A DNA stretch of 64,000 bases from a virus (lineage: Duplodnaviria > Caudoviricetes). The stretch lies in IMG/VR virus record IMGVR_UViG_3300020047_007062, positions 1-64,000 of that record. One strand, written 5' to 3'. Position 1 is the first letter of the stretch. Each line of letters starts with the position of its first letter. The position numbers were made by a program, and so were the translations under genes. The notes beneath the pieces were generated by a model. The model was not told the DNA's origin. It did not search any database and was given only the letters and a program-made list of their open reading frames with translations. Of this stretch, positions 8,383 through 54,773 are shown one piece after another.

Positions 8383-8455
8383 GCGTCCATAGCTTAACGG
8401 TTAAAGCACCACGCTCATAACGTGGGTTATATTGGTTCGAAACCAGTTGGGCGCA
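8383..8455 (+). tRNA. tRNA with CAT anticodon (elongator Met or Ile2); CCA not encoded
   Basis: Cloverleaf: GCGTCCA/TGGGCGC acceptor, GCTT/AAGC D stem, CCACG-CTCATAA-CGTGG, ATTGG-TTCGAAA-CCAGT. Confidence 0.92.
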
Positions 8456-15949: not shown

Positions 15950-18900
15950 TCATGGTTTATACCCCTCAAGGGCTGCGTTGTACTTCTGAATATCCCCCTC
16001 CAAGTCCCTGTCGGATGGTGCGTTCCCCCACTTGGCCGTCATGGTCGCAAAGGCAGCCTTATTACTCAAAGTATTGATCTCGCTGATCTCCCTCTTGATC
16101 TCGTCCCTCTCCCTGATGTCAACAAGTTCCTTACCCAACTTGGCCTCGTAATTGGGGTCTTCTGATGTGATCCCCCTGTCGGTCAATTCCCTCTTGGCCT
16201 TGCGTAATTGTTCAAAGGTAGCGGCAGCCACGTACTGTTTGTAGATGTCGTCCCTCGTCTGCTTACTGTCCTCCTGTAACATGGCGTCAATCCTCCTCTC
16301 CTTCTGCCCCACGGGATTGGTAGCGTAATAAGCCTTGACCAATGCATCAAACTTCTTGGCCTTCTCAAGCCCGTACTCATACAATTCCTTTTCGGTCATG
16401 GTGCGTAACCCGTACCTCTGACTTGGGTCAAACACTTTGTACGGTTCGAGGTCTTCCCGAACATTCAACACGCGGGGGTAGTAGTCACTCACGAACTTAT
16501 CCACCTTGTCACCCATCTGCTTTTCCTTAAACATGGTGAGCCACCCGTTCACCGAATTGGCGTAGATGTCCCCTGTCTTATATTCCCGTCCCCTGTAATC
16601 GTAGGCGGGTTTATCCAATGCCCAACCACCAAACAGTCCCATATTCTTTTTCACGTAATCCCCAAAGGTGATAGGGCTTTTCGCTTGGGGATGGATTGTT
16701 TGCTCAAGTTGGCGGGATGTCTGCACCAAGGGGATCAATGCCCTCGTACTCATATCCGCAATCAAATTCTTGAGGTATTTTGGATCGTCATAACGACTTG
16801 TGATGTCCCTGATTCCCCCAAGTTGTCCGTCCACGATGATGTCACTTGCCATCTTGGTCATGTACTGCCAAGTGCGGTCTGTGAATGTTAAGTCCTCGAA
16901 GTTATCCACGTACCTGTTGAGGTCAGCGTATATCGCTTCGGCCCTTATCGCCCCACCCATCGTTCCAAGTGCCTCGAAGGGGATGTTATAGTTCCCAATC
17001 CTAACCGCATCCTTGGGCCTTGTCACGCTCTCTGTCTTTGACCGTTTCCAATCGCCGGAACCACTACCGAAGAAGGGGGATTTAACCTCGTCTTCCTCAT
17101 CGTCCTCGTCAAACATGGCGTATGCCAATAATGCCAATGTACGTACTGCCAATCCAATCGAGGCGCGGACAATAAATTCGTGGCCGTGCTGAAAGGATTT
17201 CATGGCGCCCAACTTGTCACCTTCCACGAGGCGCTTGTATGCCGCTGCGGTCATGTAACCCGCCCCCTTGGTGTACCCGTAGGTTGGGATATACTCCAAT
17301 GTCTTCTCAACGATATTCCCAACGCCCTTGATGAAGGGGATAATGGTTCCTGTAATCGTGTCAATTAATACTTGTACGAATCTGAAAAAATCTTCCGCGA
17401 ATTTGGATGTCGTTGTTGTTACTATCTTCTTGGTAATTGACTTCAAGACAGACACAATGGCGTCAAGCATCCCAATAGTCAACCTACTGATACCATACTG
17501 CTCTTGGCTCTTGTATGTATTCCTATTGGCGAAATAAGCCGCCTCCTTGACAATCTCTTGTCCCCTTCCCTGCACGATGATCTCATACACCCTCCGCATG
17601 AAACGGTTGTTGTCCTTAGCGTTGTCCCCCAAGTTAATACCCATCTTGGCGTAGTCCGCCTCTGCCTGTTCTATCGCGTCTTCCAACGTCACGGGGTACA
17701 TCATCTCCAATGTCTTAGCCTCCAACGCTTCCATTGAGAGCGCGGGTTCCTCGATCATCAACTTATGTTTGATGAACGTGTAGGTCTGCATCTCTTGGAG
17801 TAACACTTGGTTAAGCGTGTCGGGGAACGACAATACCCTACCCACGTACTTGTTGACCCCCTGCATCTTGGAATAATACTTACCAAGCAAGGTCGTGTAT
17901 TCAGCGGGGGAGAACTCCAAGGTACGGACGCGGGGTGAACCCTCCTTAGTTTCGGTGATCTCCGAATAAGCCGAACCCAAGTCCACACCTCCCCTGAGCA
18001 ATATGTCAAGGGCCGTGCGGAGTGCTGGCTTAATAGCCCGTGCTACCGCTTTATTCACATTCACATCGGGTTTCTTACCCCTACCCAATGACGAGTACAG
18101 GTTAAGGAGCGAATGGTGCAGGTACATCGGGGGTAATTCGAAAAATCCCGTCAGGTTCTTGAGCGTTGTTATGTAACCGGCGAGCATACCCGACTTCATA
18201 AAGTCTTGGAACCTGCGGGTAGTAAATTCATGTTGTAGTTGCAACAGACGGGCCGTGAACTCCTCCTCCAAACCCTCCCTCTCAAACCCACGGGGGGCCT
18301 CGTCAATCTTCCTAAGTTGTTCCTCCATCCAATCCTCGTCTTCCTTGGTCATGGACTTAATACCCAAGTAGTCGGCGAGTTCGGCGAGGACGTCCGCCCG
18401 CTTGAGCGCCCCTATGTTGTGGGCCTCAATGAGTTTGTCAATGCGGGTCTTTCTGATTCCCTTCTTGCGCTTGCGGCTACCGATCAAACGGTTAATGGCC
18501 GATTCCTGCTTCTGACGGTGGAGTTCACGGAACCTCGGTGATATTTCCGTGATAAATTGGTCAGCGGCCTGTTCCCCCACTTTGGGGACGAGGGCTTCCC
18601 TTATTTTGTTTAGGGCATCATCGGCATTTTTGGAACCTTGGACAAGGGGTGACCAGTTGACCCGCACAACCTTCTTACCCTTGATGGTTGATTCGGTAAA
18701 GAGGCCCATGTCAATGAGGGCTTGGCGGATTTTCTTGTCAACACTCACCTTCTTTTTGCCACCCTCCTTCTCACTAATGAGCGCCATCGCTTCATCCACT
18801 TCTTCGTCGGTTGACAGGTCTGACATTGGGTAACCCATATCAACCAAATCTTGGCGTACATTCTTATAGAACTCCGCAATATCTTCCTTGTACTTGCCCC

Positions 18901-21900
18901 CCGTCAGTTTGGAGAACTCGTTGTAGAAGTCCACAAAGTTGTTAGCGCCCCTCTCCACAAGTTTGGCGGCGATTATAGCCGCGTTCTTGTACATTTCGGG
19001 GTTCAGGAATGGGTTGGCCGACAAGGTTCCTAAAAACTCCTTTTTTGCCCTCTCATACGCCTCATCGGAAACGAGGGTAATCTTGGACTTGGGCCTCCTC
19101 CCCTTCTTCTTTATCCTGTCAAGTTCCTGTTCCAACGTGCTTACCCTCTCCCTCTCGGCCATGAGGGCTTCCATTGCTTCCTCATACCGTTTGTCGGAGG
19201 CAATGGCGTCCTCTATCTCTGCGGCCTTCTTCTCGGCCCCCTTCATGCGGTTCCGATTGCGTTCGGCCAAATCTTTTTTGATCCTGCGGATAACGGCGAA
19301 TGGGGTTGAGAAGTAGAGTTGGCTCAAGTAGGCAATGGCCCTACCCATGTCGCGGCTATACTTGTCGAGGACGTCCATGTACTGACCCATCTCGTCGGAC
19401 AACTTGGCCTTCTCCTTGGGGTCTGTATCCTTGTCGTTGATCTTGGCCCTTAGTTCGACCATCCTCTTACCGATAATAACGGTACGGAGGTAGGGGGCCA
19501 TCTTGGTTCCCTCGGTGATTGCTTCCTTGAGGGCTGCATCCAAACCACCCATTGCTTCCACTACTTGGTCGGCCAATGCCTCCATTTCATCGAAGGGGAG
19601 TTCATCGTATAAACGTCCGAGTTCATCCCCGATTTCCTTGGCGGTTGCCTTGTCCATACCCTCGGCTCGTTCGGTGATGGCTTCAACGACTGCCTTCTTG
19701 CGGCGCTCCCTATTCTCCTTGTGGGTGTTGGGGTCGGCGGGGTCGGGGAATGGCTTAGGTTCTTCCTCCACCATTTCGGGGATTGCCTTACCCAACTTCT
19801 CGTCAATGAACTTCATGGCTTCATCGGCCTTGAACTTAGCTTCCTTCCCCTTGAGTTCATCCACCGCTTGTTTGATCTTATCGCGGAGTTGTTTGGCGGT
19901 AATTGTTCCCGCTTTGTAGGCATCCACCAAAGTAGCCACCGTTTCAATCAATCCGTTCCACCGGGGGACGGCAATGCCGAAGGCTACCACTTCAACTTGT
20001 GGGGCTTCCACTTCTGTTGGACTTAGTAGTTCTTCTACCGCTTTGTCAATAAATTTATTAAACTCTTTATTAAAGTTATTTATGTCATCAATTTCTGATT
20101 GTTCAATATCTTCATCAAATCTTTCTTTCCAAGACTCTATTGTCCAATTATCTTTTCTTTTGCTTTCTTTTAATTTTTTTAATTCCAATTCTGCCTTTTT
20201 GCTATCTCCTCTTGCGTTTAGTATTCTTATTCTTTTTGCAGCAAGTTCTATTTCTTCGTATTTTACAACTTTACCCAAGTTATCTCTTGTGATGTCATTT
20301 GCTTTAGACCATGATGAAAATTCGTCATCTGATAATTTTGCTATTACATTTTCGTCTTTAAGATTTTTTATTTCTTGTTGAAAATCTGAATATTCTTGTA
20401 GCAATGCTTTTTCTGCATCCGTTAGGTTTTCATTTAGTTGATTTTGAGCGTTGAATTGTTTTATGCCGATATACCCCAGCTTTTTAGCTTTTTCATCTAA
20501 GGATGATTTTTTACCCTCCAACGCCTTCGCTGTGCTTTCAACGTCTGCAAGCGCAGGTTGGGCGGTTTCCGTGGGGGGTGTTCCTAACAAACTTTCAACT
20601 GCCTCAACCAATTCGGGGTTAGAACCATCAGCCTTGGCGGCATGATACGCTTGGGACACAGTTAATGACGGCGGCCTTTCATCAATAATCCACGCCGGGA
20701 TAAATTCCATTCCCTGCTCTCTCCAAAACCTAATACGGTGATTCCCGTCAAGAATCTGTATGTTCCCATCACTTTCTATTTTTATTTTGGCAGGAGGCAT
20801 TCCTCTATTTTTCCCCATTAATTCAGACCAATCATACTCCCCCACTCCTTTTAACGGGCTTTCTTCCTCTGCTAAAACTTCATCAGGAACCTCGTTGCTT
20901 GGGATATATCCCTCATAAATAAACGCATCTTTCGACGCGCCGTAATCCTTTCGTATAGTCTCCTTTGTGACCTTTGATTCACTATCTTGTAAATCCCTTG
21001 CGGAAAACGCAACATCGGGCGTAGTATCGCTATCATAATCCTGATATGGCACGTCTAAGTAGCCGTCTAATTCCTTCACTTTAGCAACATCGGCCATCTC
21101 CATTGCCTTCGCCGTGCTTTCAACATCTGCAAGCGCATCAGTTGGCACATCTTGTACACTTTCTGCCGTTTTCTTTACATCTCCCCCCTCATCTGTAACA
21201 ATTTCAGCCGTTAATAAATCGGAATATTTGTCATCAAATAATTGCCTAAGTTTTGCAGGTATTTTATTCAATAGTGCTTCATCCCCATATAATTTACCTT
21301 GAAAATATTGCATTACATAGTCTGCAAAGTTTTCTTCTTGTAATGACGCACTTGTTTCTTTGCCATTACCGCTTTTTTCTTGTGATTCATAATGTTTTGC
21401 CATTCCCGTTTCAATTGGTAATGACCTAACATAATCCCTTTCTTCTTTAGTTAATTTAGTCCATTCGTGATGCCCTAATTCGTGGCTCATTGCATTTGTA
21501 ACTTGTCTTATGTTTTCAAATGCTGAATTATTATTTAAGTGTATTTTGTTGTCAGAATAATGAGCGAACATTTCTTCTGCTGGTCTATTTTCACCATGTA
21601 TTTTAGTCACCCCTAATTTATTGAGTATGTTTAAGAATTTGTTATTTTCTAATAGTATTTTAAGGTGGCTTGCATTCAAGTCTAAATCAATTAATGAATT
21701 ACCAACTTTGTAATAACCACCCTCCGTATGTTCTAAATCGTCTAATTCATAATCCGCCCTTTTTAGCTTCTTATCTCTTGGGCTTAATTTATCCCACTCT
21801 TGTTTTGCTTTTTCAAAGTTTGATAAATGTTGTTCGTTACTAATAATACCTAATTTATCACCAACTTTTTCCTTTACAGGTTCCTTCTCCACTACCCCCT

Positions 21901-24664
21901 CCCCGACGGGTGGGGCCATCAGTTCCTTCATGGCGACCTCAATGGCCGCTATCCTCTCCTCGGCCACGGGGTTGGGTACTGACAACGCCTTCTGCTGCTC
22001 CTCAATCCCCTGCTTCTCCAATTCCAACGCCACCACCTGTGGTTTAACATCCTCCGGCAACCCCTCGGTGGCCTGTTCCACTTCCCACCACTTCTCAAGC
22101 AACAAACCAACGTCGGGTTGACCCTCCAACAACTTCTGTAATTGTGGATTAAGCGGATCACCCTCTTTGACCTTCTTGGCCAATGAGGACAACGCTTGCG
22201 CCTCTATGGGAGACACGGGCTTTTTCAAATAGCCACCTGCAACAACGCCACTACCTAACATACCCCCTATTGTACCAACCTCGATAAGGTCATTGGTTTC
22301 GATGGGGTCAAAACGCTGTTCGCCCACAATCGTATTGGCTACTGACTTGTAAATGCCTGACGCGAGTTCTACCGCTACCTCCTCCCCTGCTTCCTTCCCA
22401 AAACCAGTAGTCACCTCAGTCTCGAATGAGGATTTGAGGGCTTGTGACAATGTGTTCTTGTCCCACTTCCCCTTGGCGAGTTCCTTAATGAGTGACCCCC
22501 TCCACCGTTTGCCCGCGTCTGCCGCCAACTTATTTTCCTGTACCATCACCTCCATGACGGACGTAATAGCTGTCAATGCCATTGACGCTTGGGCCGCATC
22601 CCGTGGGGCAAATCCCGCATCAATGAACTCCCGATAGTTGTCCCCCGCTTGGGTCACAAAGGCCGTCCCAACGATACCCGCAGCACCCAATGGGCTTGCC
22701 CCTGCGGCCATGAAGGCAGCTAAGTCAACAACACCTGCCGATAGCTTGGGGAGTAGTGTCTCCGCCCCACCCTCATCAAACAATCCTTTGTTGAGAGATG
22801 GGAGTGTCCCGCTTTCGGGGGTAATCATTAAGTCACTCCATTCGGTCATGTTGTCAAAGAGGACGTCGGTTACTCCGTACTCCCCCTCGGCACCGAAAGC
22901 ATCGGAAATCACCTTGGGTAATTCAGCCATGTTCCGGCCAACATTCTGTAACCTATTCTGAATAGGTAGGGCTACTTGCTCTTGTAAGAGGATGAATGGC
23001 GTAGCGATTCCAGTCTCCCCCCTTTTGGCAGCCGCATATAATTCTTCCCTCGCCTGTATCGTTGCGTTAATCTCATCTACGTCCTTCTGTAATTCGGGGA
23101 ACCGTGGGTCAACCTTTAGATCACCACCCTCGGTGAATAGGGCGAGGTTGTAGGTGTTGAGTACGTCGCTTGCTTCTTGTGCCTTGGCTATATCCTCATC
23201 GGTTAGACCATACTTGGTAAAGATGGCGTCCTTGGCGGCCTGATTAGCCGCTTCCACCTCCGCTACCTTGGCCTCCATCGCCTTGACTTTCTTGTACAAC
23301 GGTTCGGGGAGGGGGCGTATAGTGCCGTCCTCATTACGGTAGGCATCTAATTCGGTGTTTATGGCCGTAATGGCTGCCGCATCGGGGGTTACAGCCGCTA
23401 TTTGATACTCATTATTTGCCGCTTCAACGCGCTTAAATAAGTCACGATTCTCAACTTGTAGGGCGTTCTTTTGAAACAGCCTTGCGGTAGTCAATAACTT
23501 GTTTTGTGCCTTTTCTTGGGCATACCCCTGTGGAACCAACTTCCTATCTACAAGGCCATAATCCGCAAGTAGCTTGTTGTTATTGGGGTCATTCCTTGCC
23601 GCGTCGTACTTGTCGGGGTCTGTCACCTGCCAATACCGTAGGGTATTCTTTAGGGCCGCGTAATCCTCATTTTCGGGCGTAACGGGTACATAACTATACT
23701 CCCTGAACTCTAATGCCCTGTAATCCTTCATAAACTTCCTCTGCTCATCGGTGAGGGCATCGGGCTTCTCGACTGTGTACGCGGCACGGGTCTTTTCGGA
23801 CGCTTCCTCCTTGGCTATGGCCTCATTACGTTCCCGTTCTTGGGCTTCCAACTTGTCAAACATTGCTTTGTTTGCGTTGGTCAGTCCATTGGCGGGGTCA
23901 ATCACTAAAGAGGGGATAGGTGGCTTTTCGAGTTTGGCGTTTAGTTCCGTAGAGGCAGCCATGAACTTGTCAACGGCTGATTCGAGTTTGGATGCGGGCT
24001 TAATCGGTTGCCCCGCCTTCCACCCCTGACCCGTTCCGGTAGCACCAAACCTGACTGGCTTGCCTTCTTCTAAAGGCGTTCCTTTTTTATAGCCACCTTC
24101 GGCATATTCCTGAGATTCCTTCTCTGTTTTGAAGCTACGAAATTCATCGTTCTTTAATGCGTAATCAATAGCATCGTCAACGCTTAACTCAACCAACTTG
24201 CCATCTTTTTCTACAATGGTTGGAAACGCGATATACTTCCCGTCAACCTCCGCGCTTGCCATTTTATGTGTGCTTGTGGTTCCATCGGGATTCTTGATTG
24301 ATTGAGACGGGTTTAATGCCCGCTTTTCAAAGTTCTTTAGTTTACCCGTTACGGTAGGTGTTTGAGAAGGCTTTTGCGGCTGCTGAACAGGATTTTTTGA
24401 ACCGTTTGACCCAACGCCAAAAACGTCCACCACTTCCTGTGGCGTTGGTTCTTTTTTTTTTACGCCATCCACGGGGACTGCGTTTGGCATGTCCTTCAAA
24501 AATTCCCCAACCTTACTCAATGGAATATTGTACTTCTTATCCCCAACGGTATAGGCCACCACTTCTTCCGCGTCGGGGTAATCGGCCAAAAATGCCTTTG
24601 ATTCCTTTTCGGGAATGGCATACACTTTACCTTGTGTCCTATATCGCTTGATTGGGTCTTGCAT
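15950..24664 (-). CDS. Giant (2904 aa) internal virion / DNA-ejection polyvalent protein
   Basis: Follows tail and pilot genes; mostly helical; internal zincin HELGH and ParB-like DGNHR modules. Confidence 0.7.
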   Translation of the reverse strand: MQDPIKRYRTQGKVYAIPEKESKAFLADYPDAEEVVAYTVGDKKYNIPLSKVGEFLKDMPNAVPVDGVKKKEPTPQEVVDVFGVGSNGSKNPVQQPQKPSQTPTVTGKLKNFEKRALNPSQSIKNPDGTTSTHKMASAEVDGKYIAFPTIVEKDGKLVELSVDDAIDYALKNDEFRSFKTEKESQEYAEGGYKKGTPLEEGKPVRFGATGTGQGWKAGQPIKPASKLESAVDKFMAASTELNAKLEKPPIPSLVIDPANGLTNANKAMFDKLEAQERERNEAIAKEEASEKTRAAYTVEKPDALTDEQRKFMKDYRALEFREYSYVPVTPENEDYAALKNTLRYWQVTDPDKYDAARNDPNNNKLLADYGLVDRKLVPQGYAQEKAQNKLLTTARLFQKNALQVENRDLFKRVEAANNEYQIAAVTPDAAAITAINTELDAYRNEDGTIRPLPEPLYKKVKAMEAKVAEVEAANQAAKDAIFTKYGLTDEDIAKAQEASDVLNTYNLALFTEGGDLKVDPRFPELQKDVDEINATIQAREELYAAAKRGETGIATPFILLQEQVALPIQNRLQNVGRNMAELPKVISDAFGAEGEYGVTDVLFDNMTEWSDLMITPESGTLPSLNKGLFDEGGAETLLPKLSAGVVDLAAFMAAGASPLGAAGIVGTAFVTQAGDNYREFIDAGFAPRDAAQASMALTAITSVMEVMVQENKLAADAGKRWRGSLIKELAKGKWDKNTLSQALKSSFETEVTTGFGKEAGEEVAVELASGIYKSVANTIVGEQRFDPIETNDLIEVGTIGGMLGSGVVAGGYLKKPVSPIEAQALSSLAKKVKEGDPLNPQLQKLLEGQPDVGLLLEKWWEVEQATEGLPEDVKPQVVALELEKQGIEEQQKALSVPNPVAEERIAAIEVAMKELMAPPVGEGVVEKEPVKEKVGDKLGIISNEQHLSNFEKAKQEWDKLSPRDKKLKRADYELDDLEHTEGGYYKVGNSLIDLDLNASHLKILLENNKFLNILNKLGVTKIHGENRPAEEMFAHYSDNKIHLNNNSAFENIRQVTNAMSHELGHHEWTKLTKEERDYVRSLPIETGMAKHYESQEKSGNGKETSASLQEENFADYVMQYFQGKLYGDEALLNKIPAKLRQLFDDKYSDLLTAEIVTDEGGDVKKTAESVQDVPTDALADVESTAKAMEMADVAKVKELDGYLDVPYQDYDSDTTPDVAFSARDLQDSESKVTKETIRKDYGASKDAFIYEGYIPSNEVPDEVLAEEESPLKGVGEYDWSELMGKNRGMPPAKIKIESDGNIQILDGNHRIRFWREQGMEFIPAWIIDERPPSLTVSQAYHAAKADGSNPELVEAVESLLGTPPTETAQPALADVESTAKALEGKKSSLDEKAKKLGYIGIKQFNAQNQLNENLTDAEKALLQEYSDFQQEIKNLKDENVIAKLSDDEFSSWSKANDITRDNLGKVVKYEEIELAAKRIRILNARGDSKKAELELKKLKESKRKDNWTIESWKERFDEDIEQSEIDDINNFNKEFNKFIDKAVEELLSPTEVEAPQVEVVAFGIAVPRWNGLIETVATLVDAYKAGTITAKQLRDKIKQAVDELKGKEAKFKADEAMKFIDEKLGKAIPEMVEEEPKPFPDPADPNTHKENRERRKKAVVEAITERAEGMDKATAKEIGDELGRLYDELPFDEMEALADQVVEAMGGLDAALKEAITEGTKMAPYLRTVIIGKRMVELRAKINDKDTDPKEKAKLSDEMGQYMDVLDKYSRDMGRAIAYLSQLYFSTPFAVIRRIKKDLAERNRNRMKGAEKKAAEIEDAIASDKRYEEAMEALMAERERVSTLEQELDRIKKKGRRPKSKITLVSDEAYERAKKEFLGTLSANPFLNPEMYKNAAIIAAKLVERGANNFVDFYNEFSKLTGGKYKEDIAEFYKNVRQDLVDMGYPMSDLSTDEEVDEAMALISEKEGGKKKVSVDKKIRQALIDMGLFTESTIKGKKVVRVNWSPLVQGSKNADDALNKIREALVPKVGEQAADQFITEISPRFRELHRQKQESAINRLIGSRKRKKGIRKTRIDKLIEAHNIGALKRADVLAELADYLGIKSMTKEDEDWMEEQLRKIDEAPRGFEREGLEEEFTARLLQLQHEFTTRRFQDFMKSGMLAGYITTLKNLTGFFELPPMYLHHSLLNLYSSLGRGKKPDVNVNKAVARAIKPALRTALDILLRGGVDLGSAYSEITETKEGSPRVRTLEFSPAEYTTLLGKYYSKMQGVNKYVGRVLSFPDTLNQVLLQEMQTYTFIKHKLMIEEPALSMEALEAKTLEMMYPVTLEDAIEQAEADYAKMGINLGDNAKDNNRFMRRVYEIIVQGRGQEIVKEAAYFANRNTYKSQEQYGISRLTIGMLDAIVSVLKSITKKIVTTTTSKFAEDFFRFVQVLIDTITGTIIPFIKGVGNIVEKTLEYIPTYGYTKGAGYMTAAAYKRLVEGDKLGAMKSFQHGHEFIVRASIGLAVRTLALLAYAMFDEDDEEDEVKSPFFGSGSGDWKRSKTESVTRPKDAVRIGNYNIPFEALGTMGGAIRAEAIYADLNRYVDNFEDLTFTDRTWQYMTKMASDIIVDGQLGGIRDITSRYDDPKYLKNLIADMSTRALIPLVQTSRQLEQTIHPQAKSPITFGDYVKKNMGLFGGWALDKPAYDYRGREYKTGDIYANSVNGWLTMFKEKQMGDKVDKFVSDYYPRVLNVREDLEPYKVFDPSQRYGLRTMTEKELYEYGLEKAKKFDALVKAYYATNPVGQKERRIDAMLQEDSKQTRDDIYKQYVAAATFEQLRKAKRELTDRGITSEDPNYEAKLGKELVDIRERDEIKREISEINTLSNKAAFATMTAKWGNAPSDRDLEGDIQKYNAALEGYKP
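20523..20555 (-). repeat. 33-bp direct repeat copy 2 encoding ALADVESTAKA
   Basis: 31/33 identical to 21105-21137. Confidence 0.9.
21105..21137 (-). repeat. 33-bp direct repeat copy 1 encoding ALADVESTAKA
   Basis: 31/33 identical to 20523-20555; both differences synonymous. Confidence 0.9.
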
Positions 24665-35281: not shown

Positions 35282-35509
35282 TTACAAAGCACCTGCCGCT
35301 CTCATTTCATTTTCAAAATTCAATACCCTTTCTTCTAATTCCTTTTCTTTACCTTTCCATTGAAATGCACACTCATAATAAAAATCATTATTCCATTTGC
35401 GTTCAGGGTATTTCCACTCTGAATGTTTCTGCAACCTATCAATCAGAGAGTACAAACTACTGCTAATATTGGTTTTGTGCTGTATTTCTTTGATTCTCTC
35501 TTTACTCAT
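35282..35509 (-). CDS. AT-rich hypothetical protein
   Basis: Downstream of TAGCTTTG promoter (35536-35529). Confidence 0.6.
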   Translation of the reverse strand: MSKERIKEIQHKTNISSSLYSLIDRLQKHSEWKYPERKWNNDFYYECAFQWKGKEKELEERVLNFENEMRAAGAL

Positions 35510-46592: not shown

Positions 46593-46840
46593 ACGCGGCG
46601 GATTACAAAGTAGTTTTCCCCCGTCTCGTCCACTATGGCCTTGATGCTGATCTTGATGTCGAGGCCCGTCAGTTTGTTGTAACGGCGGAGGGCGCTGTAC
46701 ACCTTCTGACGTACCTTTTCCTTGTTCTTGGTGTCATAGGTAGCCACGGCGTAATGGTCGGGGTCTGTCATGGCCCCGAAGTTAATGATGAGGTCGTCAA
46801 TGGGTGTCTTCCCCTTGCGTATCTCAAGTTGTGTGGCCAT
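46589..46840 (-). CDS. Small basic hypothetical protein
   Basis: In-operon ORF. Confidence 0.65.
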   Translation of the reverse strand: MATQLEIRKGKTPIDDLIINFGAMTDPDHYAVATYDTKNKEKVRQKVYSALRRYNKLTGLDIKISIKAIVDETGENYFVIRRV

Positions 46841-47057
46841 GAATATCCTCCTTTTTTATGATGTGGTAACGGGCCGTGTCGGTCATTACCTTACTCCCTG
46901 ACCTCGGTTGGAATAGGATGGGTTGGTTGAGTTCCACTTCCGTCACGTCATCCCCGATGGTGATTACTATCCCACGTAGTACGGTGCGGCTTGTTTTCTC
47001 CGCATAAATGTCGTCATAGAGGACAACGATGTGGTCGGGGGCGGGAACTATTGTCAT
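46824..47057 (-). CDS. groES: Co-chaperonin GroES (minimal)
   Basis: PAPDHIVV, GIVITIGDDV, YHIIKKEDIHG; coupled to groEL. Confidence 0.75.
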   Translation of the reverse strand: MTIVPAPDHIVVLYDDIYAEKTSRTVLRGIVITIGDDVTEVELNQPILFQPRSGSKVMTDTARYHIIKKEDIHGHTT

Positions 47058-48613
47058 ATCGCCTCTGAATTGCTTAGGAATGTACCCGTCATGGCGAGGT
47101 GTACCCCCGCTGTCACCGCGTTGGTTACCGCTTCCCTCAACACCTTCGAGGGGTCATAAATGCCTTCTTCCTCGTACTTGGCCCTCAGCGCGGTCACGTC
47201 CCCGTCACCCTTGATCTTAATCAATGGTTGGATGAGGGCCGCCGCGAGGATATTCTCCCCCACCGTTTTTGGTTCATTGAGGCAGTCGGCATAGCCGATA
47301 CCACCACCAATCACATACCCTTCCTCGATGGCACATTGTACCGCTTTGATGGCGTCATCCACCCTGTCGAACTTCTCCCCCGCTTCCGTTTGGGAATTGG
47401 CCCCGATCTTCACCACGGCAACACCCACGGTCAGGCGGGCAACCCTCTCTTTGAGGCGGGCCTTCCGTTCAATGTCCGTCTCTACTTCGTAAGCCGCTTG
47501 GAGTTCGGCGATGCGGTCGGTTAGTTTCTGATTGGGGTTAAATTGGAATATGGCGTGGTCTTTTGTGACCGTCACCTTCTTGATGTTACCCAAATAGGAT
47601 GCCCCCGATGCGTCCACGGTTCGGCCCGACTTGGTTCCAAACACAACGGTATCACAAGCATGGGCAATGTCCTCCAACACTTCCGCATTACCCTCCCCAC
47701 ACTCGATAGCCACGATGGGCGCCCCCTTCTCTGCCTTAGTCATCCTCCATTGGTTGTTATTCCCGATGAGGGCCGCAGGGGTATTCCCGTTAATGACGGG
47801 TGCTATGTACAGGATTGGGACGATCATCTTCTTTGAGATGTCAACCCGCGAACGGGAAATGAGTTTCTCAATCCCCTCGCTGTACGAAACGGTATCCCCA
47901 TGTATGCAGACGAGGGCTTGTTCGTATTCTGCCACGCCCCGCGAGGGGTCAGTAATCATGGATGGGTCGAGGAATCCCCACGGCATACGGGCGCCATTAA
48001 CCACTTCGAGGCACGTTTTATCCCCGTACTCCGCCATGACGTGTCCACGGTATTCTACGGCCTTGTATGCGTCCACAATGAGGGATGCAAGCTCCTTGTC
48101 CCCATTGGTTGACACGACTGCCACCTTCATAAGGTCATCCCCTTCGAGATCAACGGGTTTTGATAATTCCGACAAATTCTTTTTGAATACTTCCAATGCG
48201 CCGAAGATGCCGCGCTTGAGTTCCGAACCGCTCATTACATACTCAGGCCTCTCAACGGACGGGTGCTTACCCATTGCGATGAGGCATTGTTCGTAGATGT
48301 AGGCGGCCATTATGACCGTTGAGGTAGTCCCGTCCCCCGCCTTGCGGAGGGTTTGCATGGATGCCTCGCGTATGATTTCCACCCCGATGGCTTGTCCCGC
48401 CGTTTCGCCCTTGACGAACTTAGCGACGGTAACACCGTCTTTGGTAAGCATGGTCACATGGCCATTGGCCCCACGGGGGTCAGCGATGCGGATTGCCACG
48501 AGTTCCCCACGGGGGCCGAGGGTAGAACCGACGTGGTTATTGATTAGGTTAACTCCCGCGAGGATTTCCGAAACGGCTTCCCCACCTGTTTTCTGACGGT
48601 AAATGATTGGCAT
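47054..48613 (-). CDS. groEL: Phage-encoded chaperonin GroEL
   Basis: TLGPRG, TKDGVTVA, AGDGTTS, GVAVVKIGA, DRVDDA..AIEEG..GGG, GIYDP; no GGM tail. Confidence 0.95.
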   Translation of the reverse strand: MPIIYRQKTGGEAVSEILAGVNLINNHVGSTLGPRGELVAIRIADPRGANGHVTMLTKDGVTVAKFVKGETAGQAIGVEIIREASMQTLRKAGDGTTSTVIMAAYIYEQCLIAMGKHPSVERPEYVMSGSELKRGIFGALEVFKKNLSELSKPVDLEGDDLMKVAVVSTNGDKELASLIVDAYKAVEYRGHVMAEYGDKTCLEVVNGARMPWGFLDPSMITDPSRGVAEYEQALVCIHGDTVSYSEGIEKLISRSRVDISKKMIVPILYIAPVINGNTPAALIGNNNQWRMTKAEKGAPIVAIECGEGNAEVLEDIAHACDTVVFGTKSGRTVDASGASYLGNIKKVTVTKDHAIFQFNPNQKLTDRIAELQAAYEVETDIERKARLKERVARLTVGVAVVKIGANSQTEAGEKFDRVDDAIKAVQCAIEEGYVIGGGIGYADCLNEPKTVGENILAAALIQPLIKIKGDGDVTALRAKYEEEGIYDPSKVLREAVTNAVTAGVHLAMTGTFLSNSEAI

Positions 48614-48626
48614 AATTTGTTTTTGG

Positions 48627-48658
48627 CAAATTTACGCCTGTTTTTGTCATTTTGCAAA
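48627..48658 (-). promoter_or_regulatory. Promoter of the groEL-terL operon
   Basis: TTTG-N20-TAAATTTG. Confidence 0.75.
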
Positions 48659-48703
48659 TTTTAACTACCGCAATTTATTAGATGATATGGATGAATAAAT
48701 AAA

Positions 48704-48774
48704 CGCAAGTGTTATTTTGGTGATTATTAGGTTTTTGACTTTGTGAAGTTGCGCCTATCTGCGAGTTATACGCA
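48704..48774 (-). other. Truncated attC-like element, family A, copy 1
   Basis: Shares cgcaagtgtta and a 23/29 box with 54325-54395 at identical spacing. Confidence 0.6.
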
Positions 48775-48978
48775 ATTTGGAAACCGTTCCACAAATGCTT
48801 TCAGTATCTTAGGTAAATCAATTTCATAAATCATTGTGTACTCTTGTTCACCTTGTTCTTTTTGAAACTTCTGTGTTTTCCACCATTTCCATATTTCAAC
48901 ATTATCAGGAAAACTGCGTATAACATCGGTTTTGTGCAATGCCGAGTTCTGTGCTTCATTCAAATTTTGTTCTTTCAT
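48766..48978 (-). CDS. Small AT-rich gene in an attC-like cassette
   Basis: Starts inside the upstream hairpin loop; stop codon lies in the TGCGTATAAC core. Confidence 0.6.
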   Translation of the reverse strand: MKEQNLNEAQNSALHKTDVIRSFPDNVEIWKWWKTQKFQKEQGEQEYTMIYEIDLPKILKAFVERFPNCV

Positions 48979-49049
48979 TTTACTTTAGTTTTAAATTAAA
49001 CATTTGTGCATTTTAATTCGGCACTGCACAAAGCCGAGAACCGTTACCC
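48915..49049 (-). other. Complete attC-like palindrome
   Basis: AAC/GTT box, asymmetric unpaired spacer, 23-bp stem, AT-rich loop. Confidence 0.65.
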
Positions 49050-49520
49050 AATTACCCAAAATACCACATACATCATTACGGCAAGCCCGAAGAAGGTTAC
49101 CCTCCCGCCAACCGACAAATCCCACATGGCTGTCCCCTGTCCACTCGGTTCCGACCACCATCCCCTCCTATAAACCATAGGATTTAACCAATTCCTGAAT
49201 GTGTACAACATCCCATCGTGGAAGAAGGGGAACGACAATATCGCAAACACCCCATGCCACAACATCCAATCGGGGAAAAAGAGGACAGCCCAAACAAGTC
49301 CCCTCGTGGCCATAAACCATGTGTGTTCATTGGTGACACAATCAACAAACCAATTACTGCCCTCCCACAACCCCGCCCAATGGTCAGCCGCCTTCCCTTC
49401 GGGGGATTGCGTTAGGTTACGGGAATGGGGATTGTATAGTTTGTGGTATAGGATGGCCTCCGCGATGGCTGATACCAACGCGAATAGGATAAAGATGAAT
49501 ATTTTGTACTCCCCGATCAT
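49044..49520 (-). CDS. Multi-TM membrane protein
   Basis: Hydrophobic, Trp-rich; stop TAA within the GGGTAAC box. Confidence 0.7.
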   Translation of the reverse strand: MIGEYKIFIFILFALVSAIAEAILYHKLYNPHSRNLTQSPEGKAADHWAGLWEGSNWFVDCVTNEHTWFMATRGLVWAVLFFPDWMLWHGVFAILSFPFFHDGMLYTFRNWLNPMVYRRGWWSEPSGQGTAMWDLSVGGRVTFFGLAVMMYVVFWVIG

Positions 49521-54315: not shown

Positions 54316-54395
54316 GTGGATAGGCGCAAGTGTTAGTGTATTGATTTACAGTTGTTTTGTCATATTAAGTTGCGTGTATCCGCGAGTTGTGTGCA
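54316..54395 (-). other. Truncated attC-like element, family A, copy 2
   Basis: ggataggcgcaa/ttgcgtgtatcc arms; core GTTGTGTGCA at 54386-54395. Confidence 0.6.
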
Positions 54396-54398
54396 AGG

Positions 54399-54614
54399 CT
54401 ACTTGTCCTTACTTTCAAGTGGTCGGACGGGAATTGATTTACTTTTCATAACACCATCCCAATCACCCCATTCAACACCTCCACGATATTCAATAAAAAG
54501 ACTACCATCTTCATCTACTCTGCCAATTTTTTCTACAATATGTTTAGCAAACATTTCTTTTAGCTGTTCAACTTGGTAATCAGAAAATACCCTTAAAGTA
54601 ATTTGGTTTGCCAT
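54399..54614 (-). CDS. Small AT-rich gene in an attC-like cassette
   Basis: Lone minus-strand gene bracketed by complementary 10-bp cores. Confidence 0.6.
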   Translation of the reverse strand: MANQITLRVFSDYQVEQLKEMFAKHIVEKIGRVDEDGSLFIEYRGGVEWGDWDGVMKSKSIPVRPLESKDK

Positions 54615-54635
54615 CTTATTTTATTTTACACGCCC

Positions 54636-54773
54636 TGCACACAACAAAAGGCTTGCTGCAAGTAGGGCTTGACGTTAATAATTTGGCAGACGAATAATTT
54701 GTGAACTTATGTTCCTTGCTCGGCGGTAGTGCTGCCAATTCCCTACCTGCAAAGCAAGCCCCGAACGTTACGA
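54636..54773. other. Complete attC-like palindrome with extrahelical bases
   Basis: AAC(54643-45)/GTT(54767-69), 4/6-nt spacer, 18-bp stem with 2 bulged bases. Confidence 0.7.

Follow-up and report, generated by a model that had tools for sequence, protein, structure and literature searches.

A candidate gene cassette with an attC-like long hairpin in a phage genome, and its relatives in Bacteroidota and their phages

A putative landing pad, a small candidate cassette and a long hairpin

The DNA analysed here (the window) is the first 64,000 nucleotides of a 73.6-kb IMG/VR virus record (IMGVR_UViG_3300020047_007062) that is ∼77% complete, and the region of interest lies at positions 48699–49520. 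The minus strand carries every gene around the site. On one side are a GroEL-like gene (47054–48613) and a GroES-like gene (46824–47057), on the other a resident gene for a 158-aa membrane protein (49044–49520), and between them lies a small open reading frame (ORF) of 70 aa (48766–48978), referred to below as the cargo. The G+C content of the cassette described below is 30–38% in 100-nt windows, and that of 48600–49040 is 27–38%, versus ∼55% in the flanking genes. At 48627–48658 on the minus strand, just upstream of the GroEL-like and GroES-like genes, is a Bacteroidetes promoter of canonical form (TTTG-N20-TAAATTTG); this chaperonin pair, which is downstream of the cassette, has its own promoter. 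Pfam matches among the 67 ORFs of the window include an IS1-type DDE transposase, a ParE toxin, a DnaB helicase, a DnaA-type HTH, HNH and sugar-modifying enzymes (DegT, FdtA and glycosyltransferases). The window also has a tRNA (8383–8455) and a 2904-aa ORF (15950–24664).

We describe the site on the plus strand and mark its junctions with a slash. A putative attI-like landing pad (48699–48765) ends in ..TATCTGCGAG, and a 278-nt candidate cassette (48766–49043) is joined to it after G48765. The cassette lies between two G/TT points and consists of G/TTATACGCA, the cargo ORF on the minus strand, TGCGTATAAC, a hairpin and then CCG/TTA, the distal junction reading CCG/TTACCC. The core-type box G/TTATACGCA at the cassette start (48765–48774; 10-mer GTTATACGCA) includes the TAA of the cargo ORF (48766–48768, within GTTATA), and the inverse-core-type box TGCGTATAAC (48915–48924) is its exact reverse complement. 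The left arm of the hairpin (48926–48948) falls within the 5′ coding region of the cargo ORF. It is followed by an A+T-rich loop of 66 nt (48949–49014), which holds an A-rich leader and the cargo ATG (48976–48978, minus strand), and by the right arm (49015–49037); the two 23-nt arms are 87% complementary. Residues 1–22 of the cargo are encoded by the hairpin and box, and residues 23–68 form a conserved small domain. An unpaired 5-nt spacer, GAACC, and the box G/TTACCC complete the site (49038–49049), with the stop codon of the membrane-protein gene (TAA, 49044–49046) placed in the GTTA box; the gene itself is outside the cassette. The AAC/GTT boxes of the window, TAAC and CGTTA, are at 48921–48924 and 49043–49046.

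A preliminary description of this locus gave the coordinates of the 10-mers and the ORF correctly, and also recognised the 135-bp palindrome with its 23-bp stem, the ORF start in the loop, the stop of the membrane-protein gene in the far box and the ORF's own stop in the core. It stated, in addition, that the exactly complementary 10-mers bracket the ORF. Their complementarity is indeed exact, but the second 10-mer makes up codons 19–22 of the ORF, so that what the pair encloses is the gene body and not the complete ORF. With one mismatch allowed, the complementarity reaches 14 nt. Taken alone the pair is at chance level, as the window contains 22 perfect 10-mer inverted repeats within 300 nt versus 22.9 expected in Markov-1 random sequence, and its significance comes from its position and from the hairpin family described below. 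The fold of the window hairpin is only moderately better than those of shuffled sequences (z −2.5 and −2.9).

A second pad and cassette are present in the same genome. Segments 48699–48775 and 54320–54396 can be aligned over 77 nt, 69% of which are identical, with E 2e-8 in a comparison confined to the window (the next best match has E 0.09), and both pads, the second spanning 54320–54386, finish at GCGAG/TT, where a cassette starts; each has one cassette. The sister cassette (54387–54767, plus strand) is composed of G/TTGTGTGCA, a gene body, TGCACACAAC, a divergent hairpin and then CG/TTA. Its ends, GTTGTGTGCA and TGCACACAAC, show perfect 10-mer complementarity, and its hairpin arms (54650–54667 and 54741–54760) form the stem GGCTTGCTGCAAGTAGGG / CCCTACCTGCAAAGCAAGCC. 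A degenerate short copy of the hairpin (35449–35509, minus strand) heads a 74-aa ORF (35285–35509) with the N-terminus IQHKTNISS, and because its end boxes are no longer complementary this ORF may represent a fossil cassette. A CALIN comprises at least two nearby attC sites without an integrase; the site at 48766–49043 is single, with the next intact site 5.3 kb away, and corresponds rather to a solo site.

Four patterns describing the pad were compared with IMG/VR and metagenome contigs, of which two gave chance matches and the others none. Searches of IMG/VR with the GroEL-like and membrane proteins found no close relatives of the window phage, and neither IMG/VR nor the metagenome contigs yielded a relative in which this exact locus is empty or filled with another cassette, as sought in the preliminary description.

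The conserved body of the 70-aa protein has relatives in >172 clusters. Its structure prediction (pLDDT 64.5, pTM 0.28) was too poor for a structure search, and the first 17 hairpin-encoded residues are predicted to be disordered. We note that the conserved 45-aa domain of the cargo (EIWKWWQTQKFQKEQGEQEYTMIYEIDLPKILKAF) corresponds to the C-terminus of phage proteins of 90–100 aa (L265–L275), the genes for which have GGAGG ribosome sites and lack the boxes. The cassette probably acquired part of a phage gene that is widespread.

The hairpin family in Bacteroidota and their phages

Positions 48913–49046 of the window are 76% identical to sequence in 21 Flavobacterium Muminvirus records, where the matches fall on the 5′ ends of DNA methyltransferase genes and the regions before them, and nowhere else in those 21 genomes. 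The reading frame over the shared stretch varies among the phages, which indicates that the constraint acts on nucleotides. Using the search pattern GGTTTTGTGC-N75-105-CACAAAGCC, copies were found in >120 IMG/VR contigs among the matches listed. Conservation was judged on an alignment of 93 diverse copies at positions outside the search pattern; there, TAAC and CGTTA are at least 90% conserved, and the consensus on the plus strand of the window is ..TGCnnnTAAC-A-nn-stem-loop-stem-nn-aaaa-CGTTAnnnGCAAT. Unpaired features include a 1 × 5 nt asymmetric spacer, an A.C mismatch that is conserved across subfamilies and, in roughly every second copy, a bulged A; there is also a T.G mismatch, which the search pattern itself imposes.

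The distal part of the stem occurs as GCCGA/TCGGC, GGGG/CCCC, GGCG/CGCC and GCCG/CGGC variants. Each of its five base pairs has undergone 15–46 double-sided compensatory changes with almost no broken pairs, and among ∼465 covarying cells there are no G-U type intermediates, which points to Watson-Crick pairing of DNA and not to an RNA helix. Comparison of the copies thus shows, at the level of sequence, that the stem of the family is under Watson-Crick constraint; covariation in an inverted repeat could also come from homogenisation of both arms. Rfam searches at gathering and permissive thresholds returned only a tRNA and sub-threshold miRNA-like or generic long-hairpin matches.

In genome contigs the bare hairpin pattern is expected to match ∼130 times by chance, and we retained those matches that were also recognised by an nhmmer profile of the family. 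The genuine copies identified in this way are in Bacteroidota only (Flavobacterium, Kaistella, Chitinophagaceae, Larkinella and others). One complete Bacteroidota chromosome, CP058707.1 (G003:C1:3561387-3620860), contains four near-identical hairpins 3.5–50 kb apart, all of them distant from any strong tyrosine-recombinase match. Phages mumin9-1 (L001) and snusmum6-1 (L254) have further hairpin subfamilies at cassette borders (e.g. TAACGTTTGGTGGCTTTAATACAGTTGCGG), and the superfamily of sites is therefore wider than our search pattern.

The gene upstream of the hairpin in phages has its stop codon in the TAAC box in 28 of 87 copies and 12 nt before the box in another 18. We found 115 copies, 103 of them with a usable downstream ORF, and in 70 of these 103 the ORF starts in the loop. 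Downstream ORFs traverse the hairpin arm in any of the three reading frames, which rules out a conserved N-terminal peptide. The commonest identifiable cargo is DNA methyltransferases: among 65 downstream proteins there are 16 DNA-modification enzymes (15 methyltransferases of the N6_N4, C5 and UPF0020 types and one Mom) and three YopX proteins, and most of the others are small with no Pfam match. The Bacteroidetes promoter TTTG-N17-23-TAnnTTTG is found in none of the 93 sense strands, ruling out a sigma-A promoter in the hairpin, and a −7 box is present in only one of the 93; a terminator-like T run is absent from the hairpin. An invertible promoter switch was also considered, and is ruled out by the 66 nt between the arms, the cassette-like system and the distant complementary ends.

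The complementarity of core and inverse-core ends, which the preliminary description had put forward as a hallmark of integron cassettes, extends throughout the family. For each copy the 10-mer after the hairpin (GTTAnnnnnn, gene-sense strand) was taken and its reverse complement was sought downstream. Such a box, ending in TAAC, is present in 88 of 94 copies (67 exactly and 21 with one mismatch) at a distance of 160–1419 nt (median 383), compared with 105 of 1491 control searches (7%) in which the box of another copy was used. By contrast, when the two boxes that belong to a single hairpin are compared, 81 of 89 copies have 3–6 differences among the 6 variable positions. Cassette ends are thus shown by sequence comparison to be complementary within a cassette and not across the hairpin. 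An integron cassette is a circle opened at G/TT, so that its inverse core corresponds to the beginning of the same cassette rather than to the core next to it; the pattern of end complementarity seen here is the integron-cassette hallmark.

Chromosomal genes associated with the hairpin are mostly in the canonical ORF-then-site orientation (30/41), opposite to that in phages, and end complementarity is present in 21 of 40 chromosomal copies. An 8.7-kb chromosomal contig (L256; G001:C282) contains seven co-oriented hairpins, and its cargo comprises Cass2 (a family associated with integrons), a pentapeptide-repeat protein, bPH_2, DUF4420 and a type IIG restriction-modification gene. This contig has the appearance of a chromosomal array of cassettes whose sites belong to the family seen in the phages. 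The preliminary description had named Bacteroidota cassette arrays as a comparison for the hairpins, and the same hairpin is used in chromosomal arrays whose cargo is typical of integrons.

Cassette movement and candidate recombinases

An unrelated 26-kb phage contig (L120) has the same hairpin and ORF as the window, with 95% identity over 273 nt, in wholly different flanks. The high-identity homology runs from the stem foot (49036) to ..GCGTATAAC(T); the TAACGG box past a 4-nt spacer is also common to the two, but is conserved family-wide. When the 11 longest homology pairs among element neighbourhoods are considered, the left break is ≤18 nt from the stem foot in 10 (nine of them at −11 to 0) and the right break ends ..TGCnnnTAAC(G), likewise in 10. 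A precise 470-bp indel bounded by TAACGTT repeats distinguishes two phage records that are 99.8–99.9% identical (L040 and L110); this is the type of gain or loss at the boxes that the preliminary description had asked for among relatives. The cultured Flavobacterium phages mumin9-1 and snusmum6-1 share blocks that are 98.9–99.7% identical and in changed order, and most of the block edges are at TAACG. These comparisons of sequence show that close relatives gain, lose and re-order cassettes, and that the exchange points are located at the boxes.

The cargo body of the window is also found in several other contexts. With identical boxes, GTTATACGCAG .. TGCGTATAAC, it lies behind hairpin subfamily A in the window and L120 and behind hairpin subfamily B in L258–L263, and in L264 it is fused in frame to another ORF with no hairpin; the junction is exactly /GTTA in all contexts. 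L120 and L261/L262 have the body and downstream flank in common and differ in the hairpin. Together these junctions indicate that exchange takes place at all three AAC/GTT boxes, as would be expected if either strand of a nearly symmetric site is usable. We note that the 3′ end of the cargo in L263 (IMGVR_UViG_3300044612_002213) is a hairpin-less palindrome of both boxes with a 6-nt centre, TGCGTATAAG-TGCT-GTTATACGC, which resembles a minimal tyrosine-recombinase core site.

The 4–6 nt spacer between TAACG and the stem is the same in about half of the pairs and different in the rest (TTCT in the window, AAAA in L120), so a single fixed cut at G/TT cannot account for every junction. This could be the result of two cut positions at a distance of 7–8 nt and a heteroduplex overlap, such as heterology-tolerant Bacteroides integrases produce, of crossovers within the invariant stem foot, or of later conversion.

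None of the 67 ORFs of the window, in which 20 Pfam families were matched, is a tyrosine recombinase, a serine recombinase or a Y1 transposase, and PF00589 has no match in the whole phage record. Among 50 element-bearing phage records, 17 encode a tyrosine recombinase (9 of the 27 that are at least 90% complete), and 10 carry a small recombinase of 265–301 aa. In seven of the 50 records a small recombinase (265–288 aa) follows, at a distance of 45–67 nt, a cassette-type gene that has the same orientation, and in four of these seven the cassette-type gene starts in a detected hairpin. The junction before the recombinase is conserved (..GCnnnTAAC/TAYTATATRTA..ACACTAATAAAATCAA..ATG), and when viewed in the orientation of the site the layout is that of an integron, with a recombinase pointing left, a pad ending G/TT, and cassettes.

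The small recombinases retain the catalytic R, K, HxxR, H and Y residues. Their best model is NF040815 (“tyrosine recombinase/integron integrase”), with 171–207 bits versus a cut-off of 220. Against TIGR02249 they score 150–165 bits versus a cut-off of 265 (150–203 bits for the linked recombinases overall), and the match is in two pieces that skip model positions ∼180–237, which correspond to the IntI-specific insert. The family comprises 2251 clusters (E <1e-20), nearly all of 275–277 aa and with PF13495 and PF00589; a 348-aa relative is located 5 kb from a chromosomal array. No integron integrase above the TIGR02249 cut-off was found in five array-bearing Bacteroidota genomes. We consider a small Xer-like recombinase without the IntI-specific insert to be a better candidate than IntI, and the step proposed in the preliminary description, in which a host integron integrase acts on single-stranded DNA, is not supported as stated.

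An integron-like reading and its alternatives

We interpret 48766–49043 as one mobile cassette at a phage pad, with a site that is an attC-like imperfect hairpin between AAC/GTT boxes, and put the probability of this reading at roughly 0.65. The view of the locus as a phage gene cassette was already advanced in the preliminary description, and is strengthened by the complementary ends, the unrelated flanks, the re-ordering, the precise indel, the chromosomal arrays and the second pad with its cassette. The window unit apparently belongs to a large, undescribed integron-like exchange system of Bacteroidota and their phages.

In a free circular cassette TGCGTATAAC would pair with GTTATACGCA, lengthening the hairpin by 10 bp, and the circular junction would be ..TGCGTATAA joined to CGGTTCTCGGC... 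Cutting at G/TT and joining to the G/TT of the pad would yield the linear arrangement seen. In contrast to classical integrons, the cargo gene reads out of the hairpin, with the loop giving a leader, the ATG and ∼22 N-terminal codons, and its stop codon is complementary to the TTA in the core. We infer that the reaction is site-specific and is catalysed by a tyrosine recombinase, most likely one of the small (265–288 aa) Xer-like family adjoining arrays in some phages; for this phage a co-infecting phage or the host would have to provide the enzyme in trans, and the hairpin would fold from single-stranded or extruded DNA. A broader proposition, for and against which we see equal weight, is that Bacteroidota and their phages run an integron-like system of their own. 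Its long-hairpin sites would donate a start codon and an N-terminal leader, its minimal Xer-like enzyme would act without the IntI domain, and through it lytic and temperate phages would exchange anti-restriction methyltransferases as well as small accessory genes, even across very different G+C contents.

The resemblance to integrons is in the AAC/GTT boxes that flank an imperfect hairpin with an asymmetric unpaired spacer, the junctions at G/TT, the inverse core complementary to the start of the same cassette, the co-oriented arrays with Cass2-type cargo, and the recombinase gene and landing pad at one end of an array. The differences are that the hairpin sequence is a Bacteroidota-specific family, that cargo genes in phages run in the inverted direction, from a start within the loop of the site that belongs to them, such that the ORF of the window does not run towards an attC, that the linked enzyme is a 265–288-aa Xer-like protein lacking the IntI-specific insert, that exchange points are on both sides of the hairpin, and that the window copy is a solo cassette without an integrase. 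Xer/dif and CTX-phage-type systems likewise have a small Xer-like tyrosine recombinase, for which a folded hairpin is a plausible substrate, although here there is no dif-like 28-bp site and the elements carry cargo genes and form arrays.

Among the 17 phages in which Qi et al. (2023) described attC clusters is Polaribacter phage P12002L, which has methyltransferase cassettes; P12002L_attC1, the only related site with a published assay, was the single site of six that was not recombined by IntI1 (PMC9892861). P12002L is also a phage of Flavobacteriia with methyltransferase genes beside attC-like sites, and the P12002L_attC1 boxes, TGCTAACGG .. TTGTTAGGC, are identical to those described here, whereas its hairpin is short (55 nt), has the gene start outside it and was predicted by HattCI only. 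Our nhmmer family profile gave only one weak partial match to P12002L, and its sites are a short relative and not members of the long family. That study does not include the long-hairpin family, end complementarity, cassette shuffling or a linked recombinase (PMC9892861). The nearest phage precedent for cassette-like shuffling is the PeSL motifs, units of a sigma-70 promoter and a terminator that recombine by homology in T4-type phages (Arbiol et al. 2010; PMC2839356). There too repeated stem-loops border small accessory genes in plastic regions that undergo gain, loss and re-ordering, but the phage hairpin family has no promoter motif, its cassette ends are specific and complementary, and its junctions are at fixed boxes. 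Full-text literature searches found no description of the hairpin family, the start-codon-bearing loop or the linked recombinase, which is not proof that none exists.

Several other explanations have to be weighed. The hairpin could be a conserved intergenic or regulatory element whose invariant 9–20 nt are used by general or phage recombinases, such that shuffling is driven by homology with no dedicated enzyme. The invariant stem foot GGYTTTGTGC in every copy, an apparent break at the stem foot and not at TAAC in about half of the pairs, and the absence of a tyrosine recombinase from most of the phages are all in keeping with this, as is the ability of PeSLs to yield mini-circles and gene swaps in T4-type phages (PMC2839356). 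We nonetheless think it unlikely: crossovers in a shared repeat would not yield cassette-specific complementary ends, junctions also occur where the partner has a GTT/AAC box but no hairpin (the window pad, L120 and L264), and the lack of a sense-strand Bacteroidetes promoter (0/93) and of a terminator-like T run argues against a regulatory element. The preliminary description favoured a classical attC site, with its folded bottom strand recombined by a host IntI. Although the AAC/GTT boxes, the imperfect hairpin with conserved mismatches and a bulge, the 135-bp length, the complementary cassette ends and the arrays with typical cassette cargo are as this predicts, it appears quite improbable in view of the lack of a TIGR02249 match above cut-off in the five array-bearing genomes, the recombinases found without model positions ∼180–237, the near absence of integrons from Bacteroidetes according to IntegronFinder 2.0 (PMC9024848), and the failure of P12002L_attC1, a short relative with the same boxes, to give IntI1 recombinants (PMC9892861).

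It is very improbable that the element functions at the level of RNA, with the stem closing the translation start region for translation control or as an RNase III site and mobility as a side effect. The fixed orientation relative to genes in phages, the start codon in the loop in 70 of 103 cases and the upstream stop in the box would suit such a role; the lack of G-U intermediates among the ∼465 covarying cells, the opposite direction of genes through the hairpin in chromosomal arrays (30/41) and the lack of an Rfam match do not, and the distant complementary ends would go unexplained. An IS200/IS605-type ‘peel and paste’ element or a MITE, cut beside TAAC by an HUH or other transposase in trans, seems more improbable still. 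The target of IS608 is TTAC, and the TAAC-adjacent insertion resembles that of IS608, with a hairpin beside a conserved tetranucleotide, insertion 3′ of TAAC and a small module. However, each module has one hairpin and not two subterminal ones, its boxes are module-specific and complementary, there is no Y1_Tnp among the 20 Pfam families matched by the 67 window ORFs, and the gene that is actually linked to arrays is a tyrosine recombinase.

Integrons are nearly absent from Bacteroidetes according to IntegronFinder 2.0 (PMC9024848), and phage-borne attC sites have been treated as rare stowaways (PMC9892861). Here one site family joins >120 phage contigs, among the matches listed, to chromosomal arrays. 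If our reading of the window unit as an integron-like cassette is correct, it would explain in concrete terms how the accessory regions of aquatic Bacteroidota phages come to be mosaic, and would provide a candidate minimal recombinase that functions without the IntI-specific domain. The site would double as a translation-start adaptor, so that promoterless and even start-less gene bodies could be expressed wherever they land.
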